From: Candidatus Margulisiibacteriota bacterium
Lineage (GTDB): Bacteria > Margulisbacteria > WOR-1 > O2-12-FULL-45-9 > XYB2-FULL-48-7
Direction: 5' to 3'
NCBI GenBank assembly: GCA_018822365.1
Contig: JAHJKL010000070.1
Coordinates: 1,941-65,940, forward strand
Length of the DNA stretch: 64,000 bases
Under the pieces are notes generated by a model, which saw only the letters and a list, made by a program, of their open reading frames with translations, was not told where the DNA came from and ran no database searches. Shown piece by piece: positions 2,800 through 17,653 of this stretch. Every line of letters starts with the position of its first letter. Within the stretch, counting starts at the first letter, position 1. The position numbers were made by a program, and so were the translations under genes.

Positions 2800-3845
2800 T
2801 TGTTAGGCCCACCTCTCTTTGTCAGCTCCTGATCAAGGGCGCAGAAGACCTGGCGCATATCGATGTTCCCGGCGCACCCATCGATACATCGGCCGCACCC
2901 GACACAGGTATAACGGGCTAAACGATCAAAAGAATAGTCAAATTTACAGTGATAGCGGTTTTGCAGCCGCTGGGCAAGCCTGGGCCGGGAGTTCCCCCCT
3001 CCCGCCACCTTGGCATAGCCCGCTTTCAAACAGGCATCCCAGAGTTTATGGCGTTTTCCCCCCAGGCCAACCGCCTCATCAACCAATAAAAAACAGGAAC
3101 AGGTCGGACAGATAAAATTACAAGAACTGCATTCAACGCAATCCTTGGTCAGCTCGCGCCAAACCCCGCTCTCCAGATTTCCCTTATGAAGCTCATGGAG
3201 CTCGTGATCAAAAGAAAATTGCCGGTTCGCCTGTTTTAGTTTTTCTTTAACTTTTTCGCGGGTCTCGCTTTTGATCGCTTCCGCCTGCGGCAGGACCCTG
3301 GCAAAAATATTCCGCTGGTCGTCAACGATCCTTTTCCCCCTGTCACTCCCTACCTCCACGACATATCCGTTAGGAACAACCGCTAGGCTTAGGTCAAAAC
3401 ACCTCGTTGGGAAAGGGGTCCCGCCAACCAAAGGGCAAAAACAGCTGTTGCCGCAATCGGTGCAGTCGGCTCCGATTAAAATCGTTTTTTCGCGGTTGAC
3501 CTGGTAAAAGGGGTCCTGAAACTCTCCTTCGCCGAAAACGCGGTCCAAGACGCTCACGCCCTCCAGGTCGCAGGCGCGCAAACCAAGCAAAACAAGCGGA
3601 CCGGCCGAAATATGGGCTTCCCCCGAAAAATAACGGGCCACCAACTCGGTCGTTTTAAAAAAGTACCCTTTGCCTGGTTCAACCGTTCGATATCCTGAGA
3701 GGTCTATTTTGTCTATATTGCTGCCGTCAACATCAAACCAATATTTGCGGCCATATTCCCTGGCCGGAGCAACAACGTGAGCTTTTTCCATCAGCTGTCT
3801 GATCAATTTTTCAAAGTCTTTATTGTTAACAAAATACTCACTCAT
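2796..3845 (-). CDS. 4Fe-4S dicluster subunit (sulfhydrogenase beta / AsrA-like)
   Basis: The cysteine clusters are CTDCGNSCFCP, CVECSSCNFICPTCSCF and CVGCGRCIDGC. It is the first gene of the operon and overlaps the downstream gene by 4 nt. Confidence 0.65.
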   Translation of the reverse strand: MSEYFVNNKDFEKLIRQLMEKAHVVAPAREYGRKYWFDVDGSNIDKIDLSGYRTVEPGKGYFFKTTELVARYFSGEAHISAGPLVLLGLRACDLEGVSVLDRVFGEGEFQDPFYQVNREKTILIGADCTDCGNSCFCPLVGGTPFPTRCFDLSLAVVPNGYVVEVGSDRGKRIVDDQRNIFARVLPQAEAIKSETREKVKEKLKQANRQFSFDHELHELHKGNLESGVWRELTKDCVECSSCNFICPTCSCFLLVDEAVGLGGKRHKLWDACLKAGYAKVAGGGNSRPRLAQRLQNRYHCKFDYSFDRLARYTCVGCGRCIDGCAGNIDMRQVFCALDQELTKRGGPNK

Positions 3846-3858
3846 GTCGGTATTTCCG

Positions 3859-3906
3859 ATTCTAACAAATAAGCCCCCCGTGTCAAGGTAAAGAAAATGT
3901 TATAAT
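3859..3906. promoter_or_regulatory. Divergent promoter region between the oxidoreductase operon and the DUF192 gene
   Basis: Minus strand: -35 TTGACA (plus 3881-3886), a 16-nt spacer, -10 TAGAAT (plus 3859-3864), then 13 nt to the ATG at 3845. Plus strand: extended -10 TGtTATAAT at 3898-3906, 12 nt before the ATG at 3918. Confidence 0.35.
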
Positions 3907-3917
3907 CTTCCCTTTCT

Positions 3918-4379
3918 ATGCCAATTAACTTATTGATCTTACTGCTAGGCCTGACTTTTTGGACGGTGCTCACGCCTCCCCACATGTCCAACACCGAAGC
4001 GGTCTTTCAGGCCCGGCCGGTCATCAGCGCGACCATCGGCGAGAAAACATATGAACTGGAGATCGCGGACGACCTGGCCAAACGGGGTCGCGGTCTCTCA
4101 TGGCGTAAATCACTGGCCAAAAACCGGGGAATGCTCTTCCTTTTTGAAAAACCGGACCAATATGTTTTTGTTATGGACGGCATGCTTTTTCCCCTGGATT
4201 TTATCTGGCTAAAACAAGGGGTTGTTGTTGCCCTTAAAGAAGATGTCCAGCCGTCCAAACCGGACCATTCCTCGACCAATATCGTTACCAATACACATTT
4301 TGATCAGACGATCGAACTCAACGCCGGAGAAATAAAAACAACCCATATAAAGATCGGCGATCGTGTTTCTTATTTTTGA
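3918..4379 (+). CDS. DUF192 (COG1430) family protein with N-terminal TM/signal segment
   Basis: The DUF192-like core 'GMLFLFEKPDQYVFVMDGMLFPLDFIW' is present, and there is an N-terminal hydrophobic segment. Confidence 0.55.
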   Translation: MPINLLILLLGLTFWTVLTPPHMSNTEAVFQARPVISATIGEKTYELEIADDLAKRGRGLSWRKSLAKNRGMLFLFEKPDQYVFVMDGMLFPLDFIWLKQGVVVALKEDVQPSKPDHSSTNIVTNTHFDQTIELNAGEIKTTHIKIGDRVSYF

Positions 4380-4410
4380 CTATTGTCGTGAATAATGATA
4401 TAAATTAGCC

Positions 4411-7400
4411 ATGAACAAGCCCAAATACTCGATCTCCAAACAGAATGAATTTGTGATCGGGAACTACAATCAGGCCCCGACTTTTTCCAGTTTTTTTCCC
4501 GGAATAGCGGGTATTTTTGGCTGTCCAATGTGGGTTTTTTACGCCAATCGGGGGCAGTGTATCGCCTCTGCCGGCGTCCAGGACAAGAACGGGGCGATCA
4601 TTGAGTTCCACGCCGCTAACAAAGCCTACCGAAATGCCCATCTGCAGGGGTTCAGGACTTTCCTGAAGGTCGACGGCCAATTCTACGAACCATTTGCCGA
4701 AACCTCCCCCTGCCAGAACGAGCTCCGGATCAATCCTTACGATATCAAGCTTATCGAAGAAAACCCCGATCTTAAGATCAGGGTCGAAGTTCATTTTTTC
4801 AATATTCCCGATGAGCATTTCCCGGCCCTGGCCCGGACGGTCAAGATCGTTAATCTGGGTAAAAAAGCCCGCCAGGTAGAAGTTGTCGACGGCCTGCCGA
4901 TCATCATCCCCTTTGGCTTTGAAGATTTCCTCCTCAAGAAAATGAGCCAAACGATCGAGGCCTGGTGCATTGTTGAAAATCTTGATCAGGGGGTCCCCTT
5001 CTACAAGCTAAAGGTCCTGCCGGCCGACAACGCCGAAACCAAACTGCTTAAAAAAGGGAACTTCTACCTCCCTTTCTGCCAGGATGGCCAGCCGGTCGCG
5101 ACCATCGTCGACCCAACGGTCGTCTTTGGCGAAAACAGCAGCCTGGAGAGGCCGGACAATTTTTTGGGTAAAAGTTTTAAAGTACCCGGAAAGCAAATGA
5201 CCGATGGATTTACTCCGGCCGCCTTTGCCCACAAGAAATTCACCCTGACCGGTGATTTTGAGCTCTCCTCGATCATTGGCCAGATCGACAGCCTCGACCT
5301 GCTAAATAACGACAAACCCCGACTGATGAGCCGAAGCTACCTGGAGGCAAAAGCTGCCGCCAACCAGAACCTGATCAATGGGATCGGCGATTCAATGGAC
5401 ATCCGGAGCGCCAGCCGGAGCTTTGATCTTTATTCCCGCTACACCTTTCTGGACAACGTCATGCGGGGAGGGCTCCCGCTCATGATCGGCGGCAAACCGA
5501 TCTATCTCTACTATCGCAAGCATGGCGACATGGAACGCGATTACAACGACTTCAAACTTATGCCAACCTATTTTTCCCAGGGGAACGGCAACTACCGCGA
5601 CATTAATCAAAATCGGAGGAACGACCTGTTTTTTAACCCGGAGATCAAAGAGAGCAACATTGTCCGCTTCTTTAACCTGATCCAGCTTGACGGCTTCAAC
5701 CCGCTGGTCGTGCTGGGGAGCAAATATTTCATCGAGTCGTACCACACCGCGGAAACGCTGGCCAAGAAACACCTGCGGGAACCGGAAAAGCAGGCGATCG
5801 AAAAGATCGCCCGGCCGTTCATTCTGGGCGAGCTGCTCAAAGAATTTGAGCTCGAAGGGGTCCAATACCAGACCACACGCGAGGCCTTTGCCTCCGACCT
5901 GCTGCAGAGCAGCGAGGTCGAGGAAGGGGCGGTCCATGGCGAAGGGTTCTGGATCGACCATCCCTTTTACAACACCGATTTACTGGAAAGTTTTGAGGCG
6001 GTCTATCCCGACCGGATCACCGACGTTCTCTTTAACCAAAAAAACCTGACCTTTTTCGACAATGATCATGTCGTCGTCCCGCGCCAGGAAAAATACAAGC
6101 TCTGTGACGGCAAGGTCCGCCAGTATGAAAGCGTAAAACTTGATCCCGAAAAAGCGGCCCTGATCAACCACCGGGCTGTCAACAAAAACGCCGTCCGGGT
6201 CGACCACGGCAAAGGGAAGATCTACCATACCACCCTGGCGGCCAAGCTCCTCTGCCTGATCGCCAATAAAGCGGCCACCTTTGATGCCGCCGGGATCGGC
6301 CTGGAGATGGAGGCCGACAAGCCCGACTGGTATGATGCTCTTAACGGACTGCCGGGGCTTTTAGGCTCCTCCTTGTCCGAAACCCTGGAGCTAAAAAGAG
6401 TAGCCGCCTACCTGCTCTTGCGCCTGGAAAACGGGAAGGAGCTCGTCTTGCCGGCCGAAGTCAAAGAATTTATCGACCACCTGCTCCCCATCCTGGCCGA
6501 AACAGACAGCCACAAATATTGGGAGACAACCTACCAGCTGAAAGAAAAGTACCGCCAGAAAATCAAACTTGGGATCGCTGGGAGCGAAAGCGCCATTGGA
6601 CCACAGGAAACGGAGCGGCTGCTCGGGCTGGTTATTGCCCGCTGCGACCAGGCAGTGGAAAAGGTCTTGTCCAAATACGGCAATTACTACACCTATTTCG
6701 TCAACGAGGTCAGCTCGTACGAAGAGCTAGGCCAGGAGATCAGGGTCAAAGGGTTTTGCCAGAGCCCCCTGCCTCTCTTCCTGGAGGGGTTTGTCCACGC
6801 GCTCAAGGTCGAACGGGACGCGAGCATTTACCAGCGGGTCAAAGAGAGCCCGCTCTTTGACAAAAAACTGAAGATGTACAAGGTCAATGCCCCGCTGACC
6901 GAAATGCCGGTCGAGATCGGCCGGACCCGGATCTTTGCCCCAGGCTGGCTGGAGAACGAATCGGTCTTTGTTCACATGGAATACAAATATTTGTTGGAAT
7001 TATTAAAGGCCGGATTATACAAGGAGTTCTTTACCGACTTCAAAAACGTGCTGGTCCCTTTTATGGACCCCAGGGTTTACAAGCGGAGCATCCTGGAGAA
7101 TTCTTCGTTCATCGTCAGCTCCGCCCACCCCAACGCCAAAAATCACGGACGGGGTTTCATTGCCCGGCTCTCGGGCGGGGCAGCCGAATTCATCGACATG
7201 TGGCTGACCATGACTACCGGGAAAAGGCTCTTCTTCCTCGATCAGACGGGAAAGCTCTGTTTCCAGCTCAAGCCGGTCCTCCCCGCCTGGCTTTTTAAAC
7301 AGGGGGAATTAAGCTTCAGGCTTTTTGGCAAGATCGAGGTCGTTTACCTCAACTCCAAAAGAAAAGATTCCTTTGACAAGCTCCCTCTCTCCTATAAATT

Positions 7401-7509
7401 ATTTTTTGACGACAAAGAAATCGAGATCGCCCACCCCATTATCCAAGAACCTTACGCGTCAATGATCAGGGAGCGGAAGGTCAAAAAGATCGTGGCGCGC
7501 CTCTCTTAG
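4411..7509 (+). CDS. Large (1032 aa) GH94-clan-like glycoside phosphorylase (candidate GH149/GH161-type)
   Basis: The motifs 'NGNYRDINQNRRND' and 'DKPDWYDALNG' parallel the GH94 'GFRDSNQDTLG' and 'ADWNDCLNLDQG' catalytic-region motifs found in the neighbouring GH94 gene. It is co-oriented with the GH42 and GH94 genes. Confidence 0.5.
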   Translation: MNKPKYSISKQNEFVIGNYNQAPTFSSFFPGIAGIFGCPMWVFYANRGQCIASAGVQDKNGAIIEFHAANKAYRNAHLQGFRTFLKVDGQFYEPFAETSPCQNELRINPYDIKLIEENPDLKIRVEVHFFNIPDEHFPALARTVKIVNLGKKARQVEVVDGLPIIIPFGFEDFLLKKMSQTIEAWCIVENLDQGVPFYKLKVLPADNAETKLLKKGNFYLPFCQDGQPVATIVDPTVVFGENSSLERPDNFLGKSFKVPGKQMTDGFTPAAFAHKKFTLTGDFELSSIIGQIDSLDLLNNDKPRLMSRSYLEAKAAANQNLINGIGDSMDIRSASRSFDLYSRYTFLDNVMRGGLPLMIGGKPIYLYYRKHGDMERDYNDFKLMPTYFSQGNGNYRDINQNRRNDLFFNPEIKESNIVRFFNLIQLDGFNPLVVLGSKYFIESYHTAETLAKKHLREPEKQAIEKIARPFILGELLKEFELEGVQYQTTREAFASDLLQSSEVEEGAVHGEGFWIDHPFYNTDLLESFEAVYPDRITDVLFNQKNLTFFDNDHVVVPRQEKYKLCDGKVRQYESVKLDPEKAALINHRAVNKNAVRVDHGKGKIYHTTLAAKLLCLIANKAATFDAAGIGLEMEADKPDWYDALNGLPGLLGSSLSETLELKRVAAYLLLRLENGKELVLPAEVKEFIDHLLPILAETDSHKYWETTYQLKEKYRQKIKLGIAGSESAIGPQETERLLGLVIARCDQAVEKVLSKYGNYYTYFVNEVSSYEELGQEIRVKGFCQSPLPLFLEGFVHALKVERDASIYQRVKESPLFDKKLKMYKVNAPLTEMPVEIGRTRIFAPGWLENESVFVHMEYKYLLELLKAGLYKEFFTDFKNVLVPFMDPRVYKRSILENSSFIVSSAHPNAKNHGRGFIARLSGGAAEFIDMWLTMTTGKRLFFLDQTGKLCFQLKPVLPAWLFKQGELSFRLFGKIEVVYLNSKRKDSFDKLPLSYKLFFDDKEIEIAHPIIQEPYASMIRERKVKKIVARLS

Positions 7510-11744: not shown

Positions 11745-11766
11745 AGGAAATCGATTTCCTATTTTA
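11745..11766. terminator. Bidirectional hairpin terminator between convergent genes
   Basis: A perfect 16-bp palindrome AGGAAATCGATTTCCT is followed by ATTTTAT, lying between the GH94 stop (11723) and the stop of the minus-strand gene (11759). Confidence 0.4.
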
Positions 11767-12310
11767 TGGCAACTACCTTCGTCTTGGCGATCGTTCGACC
11801 GTCAACCACGACCCTGACAAAGTAGACCCCGTTGTCTACGGCTTCGCCAAAGACAGATCTGCCGTCCCAGACGACCCGGCTATAGCCGTCACTGCCGCGA
11901 TTGGCGCTGGTATCCGAGATCAGCCTGATCAAACTCCCCGACAGATCAAAAATATAGGCTTTTACCGGGGCATCGGTCGCATATTTATAGGCAATGGTCA
12001 CCGGCTGGCTTTCCGGAATAAATGGGTTGGGGTAAACCAGGGTCTCTCCTTCGCCGCTCGGGATTATCGCGACTGCTCCTCCCGCTTGGGGAAAAAGCGG
12101 CGTATAGACCATTGACGCCAATCCGACGCTTCCTCCGTAGCTGCCGCTGCAGATCAATCCGGCGATGCTTTCCCCCGCTACTCCATAATTAATAAAATTT
12201 GTTCCGGTAGAAGTGGCCGGACCCATGGTTAACGCCTCCGGGCTGGTGCTATAAGCAAACCCGGGGGATAAAAACAAAACCAGGCACACAATGACCAGGA
12301 GTAATCTCAT
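11759..12310 (-). CDS. Secreted protein with FlgD-Ig-like / T9SS-type C-terminal sorting domain
   Basis: There is an N-terminal signal peptide (MRLLLVIVCLVLFLSPGFA). The C-terminal 'YPNPF...YIFDLSG...WDG...NGVYFVRV...K' pattern matches Por_Secre_tail / FlgD Ig-like domains. Confidence 0.55.
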   Translation of the reverse strand: MRLLLVIVCLVLFLSPGFAYSTSPEALTMGPATSTGTNFINYGVAGESIAGLICSGSYGGSVGLASMVYTPLFPQAGGAVAIIPSGEGETLVYPNPFIPESQPVTIAYKYATDAPVKAYIFDLSGSLIRLISDTSANRGSDGYSRVVWDGRSVFGEAVDNGVYFVRVVVDGRTIAKTKVVAIK

Positions 12311-12379: not shown

Positions 12380-13273
12380 ATGAAAACGATTAATTGCGCG
12401 GTTACGTTGCTATTGTTTTTTTGCTTGGCCGTTCCCGCGCTGGCCGTGCCGCAATATTTAAATTATCAGGGGGTCTTGCGTGACGACCAGGGACGCCTGG
12501 TTGCCGGGACCAAGTCGCTGACCTTTAAGCTCTATGATGTTTCAACATCCGGGACCTCTCTCTGGGAAATGACCTCCCCCGAAGTCGCGGTCAATAACGG
12601 CCTCTATAATGTTCAGCTTGGCCCACTTGGTTACGCCGAGCTTGCCTCCGGCCGCCGCTGGCTCGAAATTGCCATTGGGACAGAAACTCTTTCTCCCCGG
12701 CTCGAGATCCTCTCCGTCGCCTACGCGGTAACGGCGGGCCAGGCCGAATCGGCGACCACTCTTGGGGGATACTCTCCAGCCATAACCGGGAGCGGGAGCT
12801 TTATTCCGGTCACAACTAGCGGAAAACTTGATGCGTCAGTCATTCCAACTTCCAGCGGCGGAAATGCCGATACGGTCGACAGCTTTCACGCCAACTCAAC
12901 CGCTACCGCCGGGCAGATCTTGCCCCTTGACAGCAATAAACAGCTCAAAGGGATGTCGGTTTCAGCGGAGGCTAGCGGGAACAATTACGCTTTGTTTGTT
13001 AATGGAGGGAAATTTGGGGTTAAAACCGGATCGAACATGAGCGTGGGGACCGGAACGATTACAACAGCTAGCGGGGTCTCCTTTGTCGATGTTACCAACA
13101 CAAGTATTACACCAAATAGTTTAGTGTTTCTAACAGTTGGATCTGCTGGCGCAAACAGTCATGGGGGAATAAAAGTTACAACCATTACTAATGGAGTAAA
13201 GTTTAGAGTTGCTACAATGGACAGTAGCCCTGCAACCGTTGATATCCCTTTTAATTATCTAGTTATTAATTAA
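12380..13273 (+). CDS. Secreted beta-rich protein with N-terminal 'INYQG' motif (tail-fibre-like module)
   Basis: There is a signal peptide. The stretch 'VPQYLNYQGVLRDDQGRLVAGTKSLTFKLYDVSTSGTSLWEMTSPEVAVNNGLYNVQLG' is a motif recurrent in large secreted proteins of uncultivated bacteria. The rest is Ser/Thr/Gly-rich. Confidence 0.5.
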   Translation: MKTINCAVTLLLFFCLAVPALAVPQYLNYQGVLRDDQGRLVAGTKSLTFKLYDVSTSGTSLWEMTSPEVAVNNGLYNVQLGPLGYAELASGRRWLEIAIGTETLSPRLEILSVAYAVTAGQAESATTLGGYSPAITGSGSFIPVTTSGKLDASVIPTSSGGNADTVDSFHANSTATAGQILPLDSNKQLKGMSVSAEASGNNYALFVNGGKFGVKTGSNMSVGTGTITTASGVSFVDVTNTSITPNSLVFLTVGSAGANSHGGIKVTTITNGVKFRVATMDSSPATVDIPFNYLVIN

Positions 13274-14241
13274 TAGGAACAAGTATTAATCGAGAAGTCT
13301 AGCAATTGAGGTGTGTCAACTACATTTGGCGATGTAAAAACAAATCTAACGTTTGCACATTGTTTATCAAATCCGTTATCAGTTTGAATTAAATCTCCAT
13401 TTAATGGCAACCAGGCGGACCAATTTGATCCGCAGTCTCCATTTTGAGTTTCAACATAAATATTTGTCCCATTTTGGCTCAAAATATTCATAACAACATT
13501 GGCTCCGTTTCCAAGATTATTTGGCAATGGAACGTTAATTGCTACTAGATATGAACCATATGTCTGCCCATTTAATATTAATGCGCCAGCAACTGAAAAA
13601 GGGTCTAAACTCCCAGATGGATCAACAGTCCCTATGATCCAGTTGTCTGTCTCAGAATAATTCTGTGGCGCGCAAACCGGCCCATCGGCTACGTCCGCTT
13701 CTGCCTCAACAACATCCTGAATCACATCTTCGGTAATGTCCGGAATTATATCCTGCGCGATATCCTCAATAACATCGGGGATAATATCCGGTTTAATATC
13801 TTCCGCAACATCCTGGACCACATCTTCGGTAATGTCCGGGATAACATCAAGTAACGTGTCCAGAGGGGAATCTTGTTCCACGTCAGGTAATACATCCGGC
13901 AAGACATCAGGGGTGTCGTTGTCCACATCAATAATAGTATCCAGCGCGACATCGGCTAAAGCGTCGGCCTCTTTCCCCCCGTCTAAGACATCTTCAACCG
14001 TATCGGTTAAAACATCTTTACCGTCAACGTCGGTCAATGAGGCATCGGTTAATGTTTGCTCTTTTCCCGGCGCGAGCATCTCCGCGGCAAAAGAACAACC
14101 GATTGCCAGATGAGCGGCGGTTGCCATCGCCGCTAAGCCTGACAATTGGCCAAGCTTGGCGGCCCGTATATTTGGGGTTGCTTTTGGCATCGATGTTTGT
14201 GGACGAATCCTGGAAACCATTACCGACAATCTACTGATCAT
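13270..14241 (-). CDS. Secreted (lipo)protein with acidic 8-aa tandem repeats and a Cys-containing C-terminal domain
   Basis: The ATG at 14241 is preceded by a GGAGGG RBS, and the signal peptide ends in a lipobox-like AIGC. About 15 repeats of the type 'PDI(T/I)EDV(V/I)Q' occupy residues ~60-190. The ORF-track TTG at 14253 is less likely to be the start. Confidence 0.55.
   Translation of the reverse strand: MISRLSVMVSRIRPQTSMPKATPNIRAAKLGQLSGLAAMATAAHLAIGCSFAAEMLAPGKEQTLTDASLTDVDGKDVLTDTVEDVLDGGKEADALADVALDTIIDVDNDTPDVLPDVLPDVEQDSPLDTLLDVIPDITEDVVQDVAEDIKPDIIPDVIEDIAQDIIPDITEDVIQDVVEAEADVADGPVCAPQNYSETDNWIIGTVDPSGSLDPFSVAGALILNGQTYGSYLVAINVPLPNNLGNGANVVMNILSQNGTNIYVETQNGDCGSNWSAWLPLNGDLIQTDNGFDKQCANVRFVFTSPNVVDTPQLLDFSINTCSY
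13690..13900 (-). repeat. In-frame 24-nt tandem repeat array (encodes the D/I/V-rich octapeptide repeats)
   Basis: A visible 24-nt periodicity (e.g. ggtaatgtccgggataacatc / ggtaatgtccggaattatatc variants) encodes 'DITEDVVQ/DVAEDIKP/DIIPDVIE...'. Confidence 0.6.
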
Positions 14242-15547
14242 TTTTCCCTCCAATATTCACCATTGACAGCGAAAAGTTGGTCTGGCCAAATTGCAATAAG
14301 TGGTTCCGCCTGATCTGCCTTAGCTCGTCAACAAAGACCCGGGCCGAAGGATGGCGGTTCTCAGCTTTTTTTTGAAATGCCTTGGTAAAAAAATCCGACA
14401 GCGGTTCGCCCAGAAAGGCAAAATCAGGAAGCGGGATGTTCTCGTCCATTACCCGCCGGCCGTAGGCCGAGGCATCATCGGTCGGCTTGATCGGATAAGG
14501 GGCTCGTCCCGTGATCAGCTCAAAAACAATGACCGCCAGGGCGTAATAATCGGCCCGCCAATCTGCCTCTTCCCCCCGCCAGACTTCCGGCGACATATAA
14601 AGAGGGGTACCAAATACTCCTTGTTTATAAGCTTGAGTAAGCTTGAGCGATTTTTTCCCCAGATCACGCCTAACATATTTGGCCAAACCCCAGTCACCGA
14701 TCTTGAAGCGATCGCGATCTTCCCCTTCGGTCCGGTAGACAAAAATGTTGTCAGGTTTAAGGTCGCGGTGGACTATCCCCTCCCTATGGACCGACAGCAA
14801 AGTCTCGCCGATCGAGATCGCCAGGTCCAGAACATAATCAACCGGGAAATGGTTGACCCCTTCCTGCTGTTGTTTTTTTTCAACAATGTTTTCCAACGTT
14901 CCTGAAGGCATAAATTCCATGGTAATGTATGGGATCGAACCATTAAAACTATGCAGTGGCCTGCCAGTGAGGGCGGTAAAGGTCTTCGGGCTAAGCCGAC
15001 CCAGGTCATAAAGATGGACCACCCCTTCGATCACCAGTCTCGCCTGGTTTCTCGCTTCCGCGCTTTCAAACCGGGCGATCGTCGCCGGGTCATTGAGCGA
15101 CCCTTCAAGCGGTATTTTTAACACGACATCCAGGTCAAGGCGCCGGTCATAGGCTAATATTGTTGACGCCATCCCTCCCTGGCCTAACGGTCTTTTGACC
15201 TCATAACGCTCCATAAATGACTGGTGAAGGTGGTCTTCTTTCATCGCCTGGAGAGCTGTCATTTCACCTTTTTGCAATTCCAGCTCTGCCGCATTGCCGG
15301 CTAACGTCAGTCGATCAGAAACCAAGACCTTATGCGCGCCATAACCCAACACCGCGCTCGCCAATGCCGCGACCAGGTGCGACCACGGCTTATAGAGCGG
15401 GTCGTTAAAAGAAGCTCTGACGCTCCCGTAGGCCCCGCCAACCGCACAAGCCGCGATCAATGCCCCCCTGGCTACATTGGAAGCAACTCGATGCCGGTTG
15501 GCCAACCCATCAACTCGAGCCAGCTGTTTAGTGATCGAACTGACCAT
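14231..15547 (-). CDS. Hanks-type Ser/Thr protein kinase, N-terminally membrane-anchored
   Basis: Kinase motifs are GQGGMASTI (Gly-rich loop), VVLKIP, HRDLKPDNIF, IGDWGLA and GTPLYMSPE. Two hydrophobic segments lie at the N-terminus. The start ATG overlaps the upstream stop (TAATG). Confidence 0.8.
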   Translation of the reverse strand: MVSSITKQLARVDGLANRHRVASNVARGALIAACAVGGAYGSVRASFNDPLYKPWSHLVAALASAVLGYGAHKVLVSDRLTLAGNAAELELQKGEMTALQAMKEDHLHQSFMERYEVKRPLGQGGMASTILAYDRRLDLDVVLKIPLEGSLNDPATIARFESAEARNQARLVIEGVVHLYDLGRLSPKTFTALTGRPLHSFNGSIPYITMEFMPSGTLENIVEKKQQQEGVNHFPVDYVLDLAISIGETLLSVHREGIVHRDLKPDNIFVYRTEGEDRDRFKIGDWGLAKYVRRDLGKKSLKLTQAYKQGVFGTPLYMSPEVWRGEEADWRADYYALAVIVFELITGRAPYPIKPTDDASAYGRRVMDENIPLPDFAFLGEPLSDFFTKAFQKKAENRHPSARVFVDELRQIRRNHLLQFGQTNFSLSMVNIGGKNDQ

Positions 15548-17079
15548 TAAAAAGCCCCCCGATATGTATCAATAGAAGACGCATTAATAGGAAGAAGTAT
15601 TGGCTGGAGGCTTCCATAGCCAAACATAACTAACGCAGAAATTGGGGTAATTGAACCGGCTTCATCCTTGATTCGAGACCCGCCAATTTCTGATTGGAGG
15701 TAGATCTGCCCAAATTTTATCCGACCTTGCAGGCCGGCATTGATCTGCTGATGGTTCTCCCTGCTAATTAGCCTGAAACTTGGCCCTGCCGCCAAATCGC
15801 CGCCAACAAAGGCAGCAGCCCGTGCCTGGCTTCCTCTTTGACTGTCATAATCAAAGCGGGCCGCGGCGTCAAGTTGTTCGCTAAGCCAGGCCAGTCCGGC
15901 ATAACCTCCCGCCCCAAATCCGCCAAGCTGACGGTCGCTTCCGGCTAATCCCCCGGCAAAGATATTGATCTGCTCACTAAGATGAAGCGAAAGTCCTGCA
16001 TCCCCAAATACCACTGTTTGCGGCTCTCCCCCGCTTTGCCCGATAAAAAACGAGTCGCCAAAATTAAGAGCGACCGTTTTTAAGAGCGGCAGGGTTGCCC
16101 GTCCATTTTGTCCAAAGCCAACCATGCTGGGAAGGAGTCGTCTTGAATTTTCGTCAAGCGTGGTAGCGCGAAATCTCTCTCCGCTAACCTGCAAATGAGC
16201 GGTTAACCCGGCCGATCTTAATTGCGCGGTCCCGCGCAAAGAATCTTCACCCGACCGGGATTCAGTAAAGCCTGGAGCAAGGACCAGTCCGCCGCGATAA
16301 TCAAGTTGCGTTCGCCAGGCATCGCTTCGAATAAATTGCCAGGAACCTCCGCCTATAGCAGCCAGCCCGCCAGCCTCACTAGTTACGTATCCTCCGCCAA
16401 AAACTAAACGATAATTTGTTCCAACTGAACCAGGTTTTGGCAAAGGAGCGGATCTGGTTGGTGCGGGCCTTACCTCGCTCCTTGTTTCAGCGACCGAAAT
16501 TGCGCCGCAGATCGAGGTTATTTTTGAGTTTATCCCATCAATCGAGATCGTTTCCCGGTTCAATCTGTTGTTAACCGGTAAACGGCTATTAAGTTGCACC
16601 AATAGGTCGCGAAGTGATGGAAGATACGCCAACGCCAATCCTCTTAAGCGGGTATTATCCCGGGAAAGAGCAAATTCCAGGTTTTGGGTCGCTTGTGATA
16701 GCTGCCCGCGCAGCGCCTGGTATCTCTGTTTGGCTTCCTGGATCTTATTGATGGCTACGTTTAAATTGCTAACATCTTCTTTTAAAACGTCCATCTTGTT
16801 TCGCCTGGAAATTTCGGCGATCATGTCATTTAATACTTTAAGCCTCTTTTCAAATGGATCGGTTTCCGTTGTTGATCTGGCCAGATCAATAAATATCCGG
16901 CTGGTTTCGTCGGTAAATACCAGCCCGCCGATCCCGTTGTTCAACTCCCCAACCACCTGTGCCATTGATTGAACCGCTCTCATCTCAACCAACACATTTA
17001 GTGTATCGGTGTTTTCTTTCGCTTTGGCCGGATCGATCGCCCGTCCTCTTTCAACCGTACAAATCGCGTTTATATCCAT
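15547..17079 (-). CDS. Coiled-coil plus Gly-rich beta-domain protein (no signal peptide seen)
   Basis: The ATG at 17079 is preceded by RBS AGGAG. The ORF-track start at 17169 would overlap the upstream gene. The N-terminal ~230 aa are heptad-rich, the C-terminal half is Gly/Ala/Ser-rich beta-like, and the protein ends in ...YRGAF. Confidence 0.5.
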   Translation of the reverse strand: MDINAICTVERGRAIDPAKAKENTDTLNVLVEMRAVQSMAQVVGELNNGIGGLVFTDETSRIFIDLARSTTETDPFEKRLKVLNDMIAEISRRNKMDVLKEDVSNLNVAINKIQEAKQRYQALRGQLSQATQNLEFALSRDNTRLRGLALAYLPSLRDLLVQLNSRLPVNNRLNRETISIDGINSKITSICGAISVAETRSEVRPAPTRSAPLPKPGSVGTNYRLVFGGGYVTSEAGGLAAIGGGSWQFIRSDAWRTQLDYRGGLVLAPGFTESRSGEDSLRGTAQLRSAGLTAHLQVSGERFRATTLDENSRRLLPSMVGFGQNGRATLPLLKTVALNFGDSFFIGQSGGEPQTVVFGDAGLSLHLSEQINIFAGGLAGSDRQLGGFGAGGYAGLAWLSEQLDAAARFDYDSQRGSQARAAAFVGGDLAAGPSFRLISRENHQQINAGLQGRIKFGQIYLQSEIGGSRIKDEAGSITPISALVMFGYGSLQPILLPINASSIDTYRGAF

Positions 17080-17089
17080 CTTTTTCTCC

Positions 17090-17653
17090 TCAATTGTCCT
17101 GGCACTTGCCGCCAACCACGATCTGGCCCAATGGACACCTGATCTCCTTTGGCGGCGTCTTGCTTCCATTTGTTGAAGGTGTTGACTTGACCGGCGGTGG
17201 AATGATCGATGGCGGGGAACTGGCCAACGGGGGAATAAAGCTTGCTATAGCCGGGGGAACCAGGCTCGCGCTCGGCGGAGCAGTCACAGTCGGGACCACT
17301 GTTGGGTTAATTTCTACAGGCGGACACACGGGAAGGTTTGGGGCATCAACTACAATGATCCCGGTCATTTCCTGAATACCATTCGCCCAGGCTCCACCCA
17401 GCCTTGACTCATTCTTTTTCAGATCAAGGACGGTTTTTATCCCCACCGATTCCAGGGCGGTCTTCATCGCTGGGGCTTGATCATCGTTTGGATGTCCGCA
17501 GTAATTTCGGATCAAGTAGTAGCTAACATGATCAAGCGAAGAAGTTTGATCAAGCGGGATAGTCACCCTCTCTTTTTTTGGCGCACCGCAGGCAACCGCC
17601 GCAGTTAAAGCCAAGGCAGGCATAATATTTCGAAAAGTTCGTGTTATCCTCAT
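17090..17653 (-). CDS. Lipoprotein with Pro-rich linker
   Basis: The ATG at 17653 gives 'MRITRTFRNIMPALALTAAVACG', a signal peptide with a lipobox-like Cys. A central PPxIPP-rich linker and a C-terminal CPLGQIVVGGKC follow. The stop sits within the RBS of the next gene. Confidence 0.5.
   Translation of the reverse strand: MRITRTFRNIMPALALTAAVACGAPKKERVTIPLDQTSSLDHVSYYLIRNYCGHPNDDQAPAMKTALESVGIKTVLDLKKNESRLGGAWANGIQEMTGIIVVDAPNLPVCPPVEINPTVVPTVTAPPSASLVPPAIASFIPPLASSPPSIIPPPVKSTPSTNGSKTPPKEIRCPLGQIVVGGKCQDN

Follow-up and report, generated by a model that had tools for sequence, protein, structure and literature searches.

In the Vlp, Vsa and Vsp lipoproteins of Mycoplasma, the signal region is conserved and precedes a charged tandem-repeat region in which the number of units varies between close relatives. 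In DNA these units are nearly perfect copies, and the repeats make up the exposed C-terminus of the protein, which bears no folded tip. Asp-rich repeats, those of RTX proteins among them, stay disordered as long as no Ca2+ is bound. Some Margulisbacteria, the group from which the DNA studied here originates, are ectosymbionts.

By the account of El Rayes et al. (bioRxiv 10.1101/2021.01.05.425367), roughly one in two of the lipoproteins that E. coli sends to its outer membrane has a disordered N-terminal linker. The mosaic adhesive trimer (MAT) fibres of Bdellovibrio provide a case of exchangeable ends: two fibres have N-termini that are 75% identical and a C-terminus that was exchanged in evolution (Caulton et al. 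2024, PMC10769870). The surface receptor of the MAT N-domain is stated as unknown in that work (PMC10769870).

Here we describe a gene from a 64,000-nucleotide stretch of a Candidatus Margulisiibacteriota contig (JAHJKL010000070.1; this whole stretch is referred to below as the window). The encoded protein is made of three modules: a putative signal peptide extending to Cys49, a 122-aa polyanionic region and a 138-aa C-terminal beta-sandwich with paired cysteines. In our estimate, the reading with the best claim (probability about 0.6) is that of an envelope lipoprotein, found only in Margulisbacteria, in which a disordered acidic tether would present an exchangeable, lectin-like tip.

Results

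Organization of the locus

The gene spans positions 13270..14241 on the minus strand and is an intact ORF of 323 aa. Its likely start is the ATG at 14241, with GGAGGG-AAAA just 5′ to it (GGAGGG lying 4 nt upstream); a TTG at 14253, chosen mechanically, is the alternative start and would yield a 327-aa product (ORF 13270..14253, minus strand). A database search identified a protein 100% identical to the product (P0001, “hypothetical protein KKC80_03860”, from a Candidatus Margulisbacteria MAG), and the protein gave no family match in Pfam or NCBIfam (E ≤ 0.01), PHROG or PADLOC. The gene had been noticed in a first-pass annotation for its acidic repeats; the minus-strand orientation, the lipobox, the 4-aa period, the fold of the C-terminal domain and the cassette replacement are features absent from that account.

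Immediately upstream lies the gene for a Hanks-type Ser/Thr kinase (14231..15547, minus strand; Pkinase match, 1.2e-28). Its stop overlaps the start of the acidic-repeat gene by 11 nt, an arrangement that suggests co-transcription and possibly translational coupling. The kinase also matches the defence system PD-T4-6 (8.8e-51), a result put down to generic Hanks-kinase similarity. The upstream 540-aa protein was considered as an outer-membrane barrel on account of its ...YRGAF terminus, and this assignment was dropped as orthologues do not keep that terminus. On the other side, a convergent ORF of 297 aa (12380..13273, plus strand) encodes a predicted secreted, fibre-like protein, and the stop codons of the two genes overlap. 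The match of the fibre-like protein to NCBIfam NF053851 (Bdello_MAT_N) is weak (33.8 bits, under the curated cutoff of 60), as is its match to K1-lyase_C. Its N-domain may thus be said to resemble the Bdellovibrio MAT N-domain weakly, the relationship being one of resemblance only.

The N-terminal part of the acidic-repeat protein (residues 1-49; 14095..14241, minus strand) comprises a basic n-region, an Ala-rich hydrophobic stretch and a lipobox-like motif, HLAIG-C49. The hydropathy maximum falls at residues 33-45. As the mark of a lipoprotein we took a lipobox, [LVI][ASTVI][GAS]C, at the end of a signal peptide whose n-region is basic and whose h-region is hydrophobic. The H-L-A-I-G-C49 sequence agrees with a permissive, PROSITE-style lipobox; the n-region, at about 30 aa, is unusually long, and the hydrophobic stretch is poor in some relatives from the same family. 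Cys49 is invariant among the aligned family members and is preceded by G or A in 8/8 of them. From these features we infer that the protein is lipid-modified. Secretion, proposed in the initial description, finds indirect support in the hydrophobic stretch, in the family-invariant lipobox-like Cys and in the even Cys counts of the C-terminal domains (see below).

The acidic region is periodic in protein and degenerate in DNA

Residues 65-186 (13684..14049, minus strand) form a polyanionic region built on the tetrapeptide D-[VI]-[ILA]-[PEQ]. Its 122 residues include 32 Asp (26%), 9 Glu and 3 Lys, giving a net charge of -38, while V, I and L together make up 34%. The interval agrees with that assigned to the repeats at first (13680-14055), the strongly negative charge reported then is borne out by the count over residues 65-186, and the DVLPDVLPDV units noted upstream are indeed there. 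The periodicity exceeds chance. Autocorrelation of the acidic protein sequence amounts to 0.31, 0.29, 0.25 and 0.27 at lags of 4, 8, 12 and 16 residues, respectively, and none of these four values was attained in any of 5000 shuffles (0/5000). For the DNA, the autocorrelation is 0.43 at a lag of 12 nt and 0.455 at one of 24 nt, with off-period values of 0.25-0.32; the 24-nt periodicity noted at first thus passed the autocorrelation check proposed for it.

The repeats are built on units of 4 aa (12 nt), of which about 20 clean ones can be counted. Among the Asp-initiated units, 20/23 have this length, and super-periods of 8 aa and 16 aa are also present. Asp residues recur at i, i+4, position i+1 is taken by V or I, and Pro appears about every 8 residues. 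The first-pass annotation had spoken of some 15 near-perfect octapeptides. The octads that it quoted are present in the protein, but the description was overstated, the unit being a tetrapeptide and the tandem-repeat finder (TRF) scoring 5.6 copies at 59% match. TRF did find a 24-nt array, confined to 139/376 nt of the interval originally claimed. This sole segment scoring as a DNA tandem array (13710..13848, minus strand) encodes DVIPDITEDVVQDVAE / DIKPDIIPDVIEDIAQ / DIIPDITEDVIQDVVE and can be described as 24 nt x 5.6 copies (59% match) or as 48 nt x 2.9 copies (69% match). Six DNA copies were found in the array, which are 63-72% alike; one pair of copies 96 nt apart is exceptional in being 88% identical over 43 nt. 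Near-identical head-to-tail units of the type that characterizes contingency loci are not seen, the match being 59% when the unit is taken as 24 nt and 69% when it is taken as 48 nt. At the DNA level, the array is degenerate and not slippage-prone.

In the full-length AF2 model, residues 1-219 have pLDDT values below 50 and the acidic region adopts no secondary structure; the run used only 8 sequences, so that the low pLDDT constitutes weak evidence of disorder. Charge-hydropathy analysis places the region marginally on the disordered side (mean hydropathy 0.496 compared to a boundary of 0.525 at a net charge of 0.31 per residue). The acidic region is thus predicted to be intrinsically disordered, in line with the disordered spacer suggested at the outset, which both analyses favour as a prediction.

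Distribution, gene order and conservation of the family

A HMMER scan of 1.8 billion representative proteins returned 14 matches, about 10 of which cover the full-length domain. All of the named sources are Margulisbacteria / WOR-1. A word-indexed search with the C-domain profile produced P0018 as the sole additional member, and scans of genomes and metagenomes, in which the kinase and the N-terminal half of the protein served as queries, yielded only the known WOR-1 genome and unrelated kinases. Judged by sequence, the family is new, having no membership in any curated family, but the protein is of a known kind. Family members share a plan in which an N-terminal stretch closing with a Cys leads into a linker rich in Asp (65-122 aa) and then into the C-domain, with Ig-like domains inserted in some. 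The linkers contain 15-26% Asp and carry a net charge per residue of -0.10 to -0.31. Their period differs by lineage, being 4/8/16 aa in the lineage of the window protein, 5 aa (xD[VI][IL]Q) in P0005, P0007 and P0018, and 9 aa (EADVAETLQ) in P0004, where Asp is partly replaced by Glu.

These relatives provide the grounds for viewing the protein as a contingency or size-variable surface protein, whose 24-nt array would slip and thereby change the length of the tether or switch expression. Relatives that are more than 90% identical differ by whole units, as P0004 (504 aa) and P0022 (495 aa) do by one 9-aa unit; likewise, P0009 and P0021 differ by 17 aa and P0019 and P0020 by 8 aa. DNA repeats are cleaner in the relatives, where a 27-nt unit occurs in 5.9 copies with 80% match and one of 81 nt reaches 90%, and the occurrence of periods of 4, 5 or 9 aa depending on lineage points to repeated birth of arrays. 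In the lineage of the window protein, DNA copies are just 59-72% alike. There, across the three genomes that make up the strain sample, L001/L002 have the same copy number bar a 2-aa EA indel in spite of a genome DNA identity of about 75%, and L003 is identical up to the cassette breakpoint described below. Moreover, a unit length that is a multiple of 3 makes frame switching impossible, and the array is the most conserved region of the protein (88%). Thus, the expansion and contraction by slippage that had been anticipated finds no support for this array, and the comparison of copy number among strains, proposed along with it, shows no change in the lineage itself and whole-unit indels in relatives with cleaner repeats. 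We consider slippage the least supported reading of the window array and an improbable one. Evidently, slippage shaped the linkers of the family over time, and this particular array is now degenerate and stable.

Gene order is kept in L001/L002, L003 and L011/L012, where a 510-552-aa protein is followed by the Ser/Thr kinase, the acidic-repeat protein and the convergent fibre-like gene. Past the fibre gene, the cluster continues with a 183-aa FlgD-Ig/T9SS-tail protein, GH94 and GH42. The first gene of the conserved cluster encodes a coiled-coil protein. Adjacency of the kinase and acidic-repeat genes is retained in L001, L002, L003 and L011, and the tail-to-tail pairing with the fibre gene in six loci (L001, L003, L004, L010, L011/L012). 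L013 contains a family member and a kinase, with no fibre neighbour.

The window and the WOR-1 genome locus L001 are about 75% identical in DNA across the locus. At the amino acid level, identity is 68% in the signal region, 88% in the acidic region (117/133, with one 2-aa EA indel) and 44% in the C-domain, and ranges from 65% to 96% in neighbouring genes. On this alignment, the repeat linker is the best-conserved part of the protein. Comparison of acidic-region codons showed 85 to be identical, 25 to differ synonymously and 15 non-synonymously, a ratio which indicates that the acidic peptide is under purifying selection. This ratio, together with an ORF that is intact in three genomes, supports translation of the repeats, as initially assumed; the possibility that they lie in a wrong or untranslated frame is ruled out by the conservation and by the synonymous/non-synonymous ratio. 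A tether that is the best-conserved part of its protein and contains 34% V/I/L is unusual for a pure entropic spacer, which suggests a more specific role, such as contact with a binding partner or ion-induced folding. The strong conservation and the V/I/L-richness of the tether keep two other readings alive.

One of them sees the region as a cation-dependent stalk, in which the spaced Asp residues would bind Ca2+ or Mg2+ and either fold into a rigid rod or bridge anionic polymers of the envelope. Such a function would make sense of the strict i, i+4 spacing of the 32 Asp and of the V or I that occupies i+1, and of a purifying selection (88% identity, synonymous exceeding non-synonymous changes) that goes beyond the need of a mere spacer; the marginal position of the region in the charge-hydropathy plot (0.496 versus 0.525) also speaks for it. 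Against this, the acidic region matches no known Ca-binding family, and neither an RTX or other known Ca2+-binding motif (e.g., GGxGxDxUx) nor a corresponding profile was found in the protein with Pfam and NCBIfam, the repeat unit having no Gly. Furthermore, the periods vary among relatives and Asp gives way in part to Glu in P0004, so that no fixed coordination geometry is conserved; Pro recurs about every 8 residues, and AF2 assigns the region no structure. We regard the stalk as a doubtful alternative, albeit one with some weight.

The other reading takes the acidic region as a docking or sorting element, either a signal for surface export or the binding site of the fibre N-domain, in which case the lipoprotein would serve as the cell-surface anchor of the fibre. 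The tail-to-tail pairing with the fibre gene, conserved at six loci, fits well with this notion, as do the high conservation of the tether and the weak likeness of the fibre N-domain to that of Bdellovibrio MAT (33.8 bits). Yet this last match is under the curated cutoff, L013 has a family member without a fibre neighbour, and tether and fibre N-domain show no co-variation beyond phylogeny. Docking or sorting therefore strikes us as very unlikely to be the function of the region.

The C-terminal domain is a predicted beta-sandwich

Residues 186-323 (13273..13686, minus strand) constitute a domain of 138 aa with 4 Cys, corresponding to the Cys-containing C-terminal domain recognized from the start. 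AF2 modelling from a nine-sequence alignment gave a confident, all-beta structure (mean pLDDT 83.8, pTM 0.82), a beta-sandwich with the jelly-roll fold of the CBM / galactose-binding-like superfamily. A Foldseek search against viral models returned the tip-attachment protein J and proteins with F5/8 type C domains. The number of Cys is even in all nine aligned C-domains; the outermost two are invariant and the internal pair is gained or lost jointly, a pattern that fits disulfides in an extracytoplasmic protein. The HMM search suggested earlier for this domain gave no Pfam or NCBIfam match, and no curated CBM or Pfam family claims the domain by sequence, neither in these collections (E ≤ 0.01) nor when the family profile was compared with PDB sequences. 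Identity to the fold matches is only 5-15% and the superfamily is very large, which is why no ligand can be named. The jelly roll is a ligand-binding fold, and the C-domain most likely binds a glycan or another surface ligand.

A cassette spanning the ends of both genes is replaced in a near-identical strain

Identity between the window and L003 stands at 99.9% both from 17707 to 13763 and from 13064 to 7398, and between these two segments blastn aligns nothing. The strain-variable cassette thus delimited by blastn and base-by-base comparison of the breakpoints (13064..13763; 700 bp, GC 0.40) carries the C-terminal parts of both convergent genes; in its place L003 has 993 unrelated bp, also with a GC content of 0.40. 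The left break is sharp and falls within the acidic array, following ...GATGTTATTGAGGA / ...CCCGATGTTATTGAGGA (..PDVIE). On the right, the break falls within the fibre gene, directly past the codons for ..GTGTIT, so that the last ~70 aa of the fibre protein (13064-13273) are part of the swapped cassette. Both ORFs are intact and in frame in the window as well as in L003. The L003 protein has the same signal region and the same first two-thirds of the array, followed by a short acidic stretch of its own and then by a C-terminal domain that differs from that of the window protein and is about 190 aa long. This replacement domain has a sub-threshold Pfam match to 3keto-disac_hyd (ConA-like; E 0.0025) and insignificant PDB matches; the database search for homologues gave none and hence points to no donor. 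In the fibre protein, the 228-aa N-part is identical between the two strains and the tip is 39% identical. The replacement is documented in a single strain pair, from metagenome-assembled genomes. No copy of the L003 cassette is present in the 64-kb window, and silent donor cassettes of the type used in pilin antigenic variation were therefore discarded as a source.

The GC content of the window is 0.51 and drops to a trough of 0.34-0.37 at 13100-13600. Similarity to L001 is lost between 13062, which is the right-hand point at which the L003 comparison also breaks, and the linker/C-domain junction at 13639. The C-domain of the window protein shares 63% identity with its L004 counterpart, against 43% with that of the syntenic L001 orthologue, an order reversed by the fibre shaft (61% for L004 versus 87% for L001), in which L004 is the most distant. 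DNA similarity between the window and L004 begins exactly at the linker/C-domain junction, at 13657. These alignments place the module boundaries in a cluster, within the acidic tether or at its end. This may be because an unstructured, periodic linker tolerates in-frame joints; alternatively, similar Asp-Val/Ile codon runs in paralogues may offer short homologies. The notion of a permissive joint draws on one in-array breakpoint and two junction-adjacent boundaries.

The coincident replacement of the two tips admits a stronger interpretation, namely that the lipoprotein and fibre genes together form a two-gene “tip cassette” for surface recognition, whose binding domains would be exchanged jointly as a low-GC module, with the array acting as a joint that permits recombination and, perhaps, as the place where the fibre docks. 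We consider this tentative and rather unlikely in so complete a form.

Discussion

Under the reading that we favour, that of a tethered lipoprotein with an exchangeable tip, the signal peptide with its lipobox-like Cys would anchor the protein in the envelope by lipid, and the polyanionic, disordered tether of ~120 aa would hold the tip away from the membrane. The tip itself would be the disulfide-braced beta-sandwich of the CBM / galactose-binding-like type, predicted to be a binding domain. The tether would represent the conserved “handle” and the tip the exchangeable part, the tips of the two convergent genes being contained in one low-GC variable segment. A repetitive, unstructured linker would tolerate any in-frame joint.

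That a secreted protein should have an acidic linker of low complexity is, by itself, ordinary. The locus adds to this a small, unannotated and Margulisbacteria-restricted family that combines a lipobox, a periodic Asp-rich tether and a CBM-like domain, and is encoded in a conserved cluster alongside a Ser/Thr kinase and a fibre-like protein. For a phylum that is known from metagenomes alone, its members provide candidates for proteins of cell-surface recognition. The most interesting element of the locus is the strain-level double-tip replacement, a natural case in which strains with 99.9% identical flanks differ by the replacement of a domain, one breakpoint lying in a repeat linker and the tip of the neighbour being replaced simultaneously. 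If true, a tip-cassette system would give uncultured Margulisbacteria a means of strain-specific adhesion.

How does this protein relate to systems already described? Outer-membrane lipoproteins of the RcsF and Pal type, as presented in bioRxiv 10.1101/2021.01.05.425367, have their parts in the order predicted for it: signal peptide, lipobox Cys, long unstructured linker and folded C-terminal domain. It departs from them in a linker that is far longer (~135 aa), strictly periodic, highly conserved and of net charge -38. Its own lipidation and envelope location are putative. The Mycoplasma Vlp, Vsa and Vsp proteins are similar in layout, but variation in repeat number is here a property of relatives of the window protein only, its own array being degenerate and stable.

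As to the tip, CBM61, CBM16, CBM22 and F5/8 type C domains have a galactose-binding-like beta-sandwich as found in the window protein, which is 5-15% identical to them. The phage baseplate and tip proteins of phi812 (9euf) and HFTV1 (9h4p) have the fold common to the CBM / galactose-binding-like group. Unlike the CBMs, the family described here comprises about 10 members, all named ones from Margulisbacteria, and has no sequence match in Pfam, NCBIfam or PDB. Finally, the combination of a conserved N-part and an exchangeable C-terminal domain, with sharp in-frame junctions and near-identical flanks, is reminiscent of phage tail fibres and MAT fibres. In contrast to these, the acidic-repeat protein is not a fibre, and its “shaft” is a disordered acidic repeat rather than a trimeric beta-helix; a further difference is that, in the pair formed by L003 and the window, a single event exchanged the tips of both convergent genes together.

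C-terminal exchange in two convergent genes and their neighbourhood

Facing the acidic-repeat gene (13270-14241, minus strand) from the other side is a plus-strand gene at 12380-13273, coding for a secreted fibre-like protein of 297 aa. Its conserved N-domain (VPQYLNYQGVLRD...) gives a weak match to NCBIfam Bdello_MAT_N (33.8 bits against a cutoff of 60), and its tip, the C-terminal ~70 aa, a weak match to K1-lyase_C. This ~70-aa tip is swapped from strain to strain. The stop codons of the two genes overlap, and an intergenic terminator is therefore absent. GC content drops sharply to 0.34-0.37 at 13100-13600, the position of both convergent C-terminal domains, against a window mean of 0.51. 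GC is just as low (0.40) in the cassette that replaces these C-terminal parts in the near-identical strain (L003).

Elsewhere in the family, the L004 member (89-1603) and its relatives P0022 and P0021 carry near-perfect acidic repeats of 9 aa (EADVAETLQ; 27-nt unit). These proteins differ by whole repeat units at more than 90% identity, hence copy-number variation is real elsewhere in the family. The member P0017 (649 aa), from the more distant Margulisiibacteriota genome L013, has two Ig-like domains, plus a LamG-like insertion inside the C-terminal beta-sandwich domain.

Neighbouring genes

The minus-strand gene at 11759-12310 encodes a secreted protein of 183 aa with a FlgD_ig-like, T9SS-type C-terminal sorting domain (TIGR04183, 31.1 bits, over the cutoff of 23), which is notable in a Margulisbacteria genome. 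Farther away, a plus-strand ORF of 1032 aa (4411-7509), without a match in Pfam and PHROG searches, lies beside GH42 and GH94 genes and is kept in L003 and in the WOR-1 genome locus L001.

Directly upstream of the family gene, in an arrangement kept in four loci, is a minus-strand gene (14231-15547) that encodes a Ser/Thr kinase of the Hanks type, whose N-terminal part contains hydrophobic segments. At L013, an AAA_14/DUF4143 ATPase gene is inserted in the interval between kinase and family gene (region 3349-4671). Upstream of the kinase, at every syntenic locus, lies the gene for a 540-aa protein without family (15547-17169, minus strand), whose N-half resembles a coiled coil and whose C-half is rich in Gly. 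The protein shares only 65% identity with its L001 orthologue, and its OMP-like ...YRGAF terminus is kept in neither L011 nor L013. The kinase itself matches the PADLOC PD-T4-6 kinase models at 8.8e-51, a score that probably reflects generic kinase similarity.
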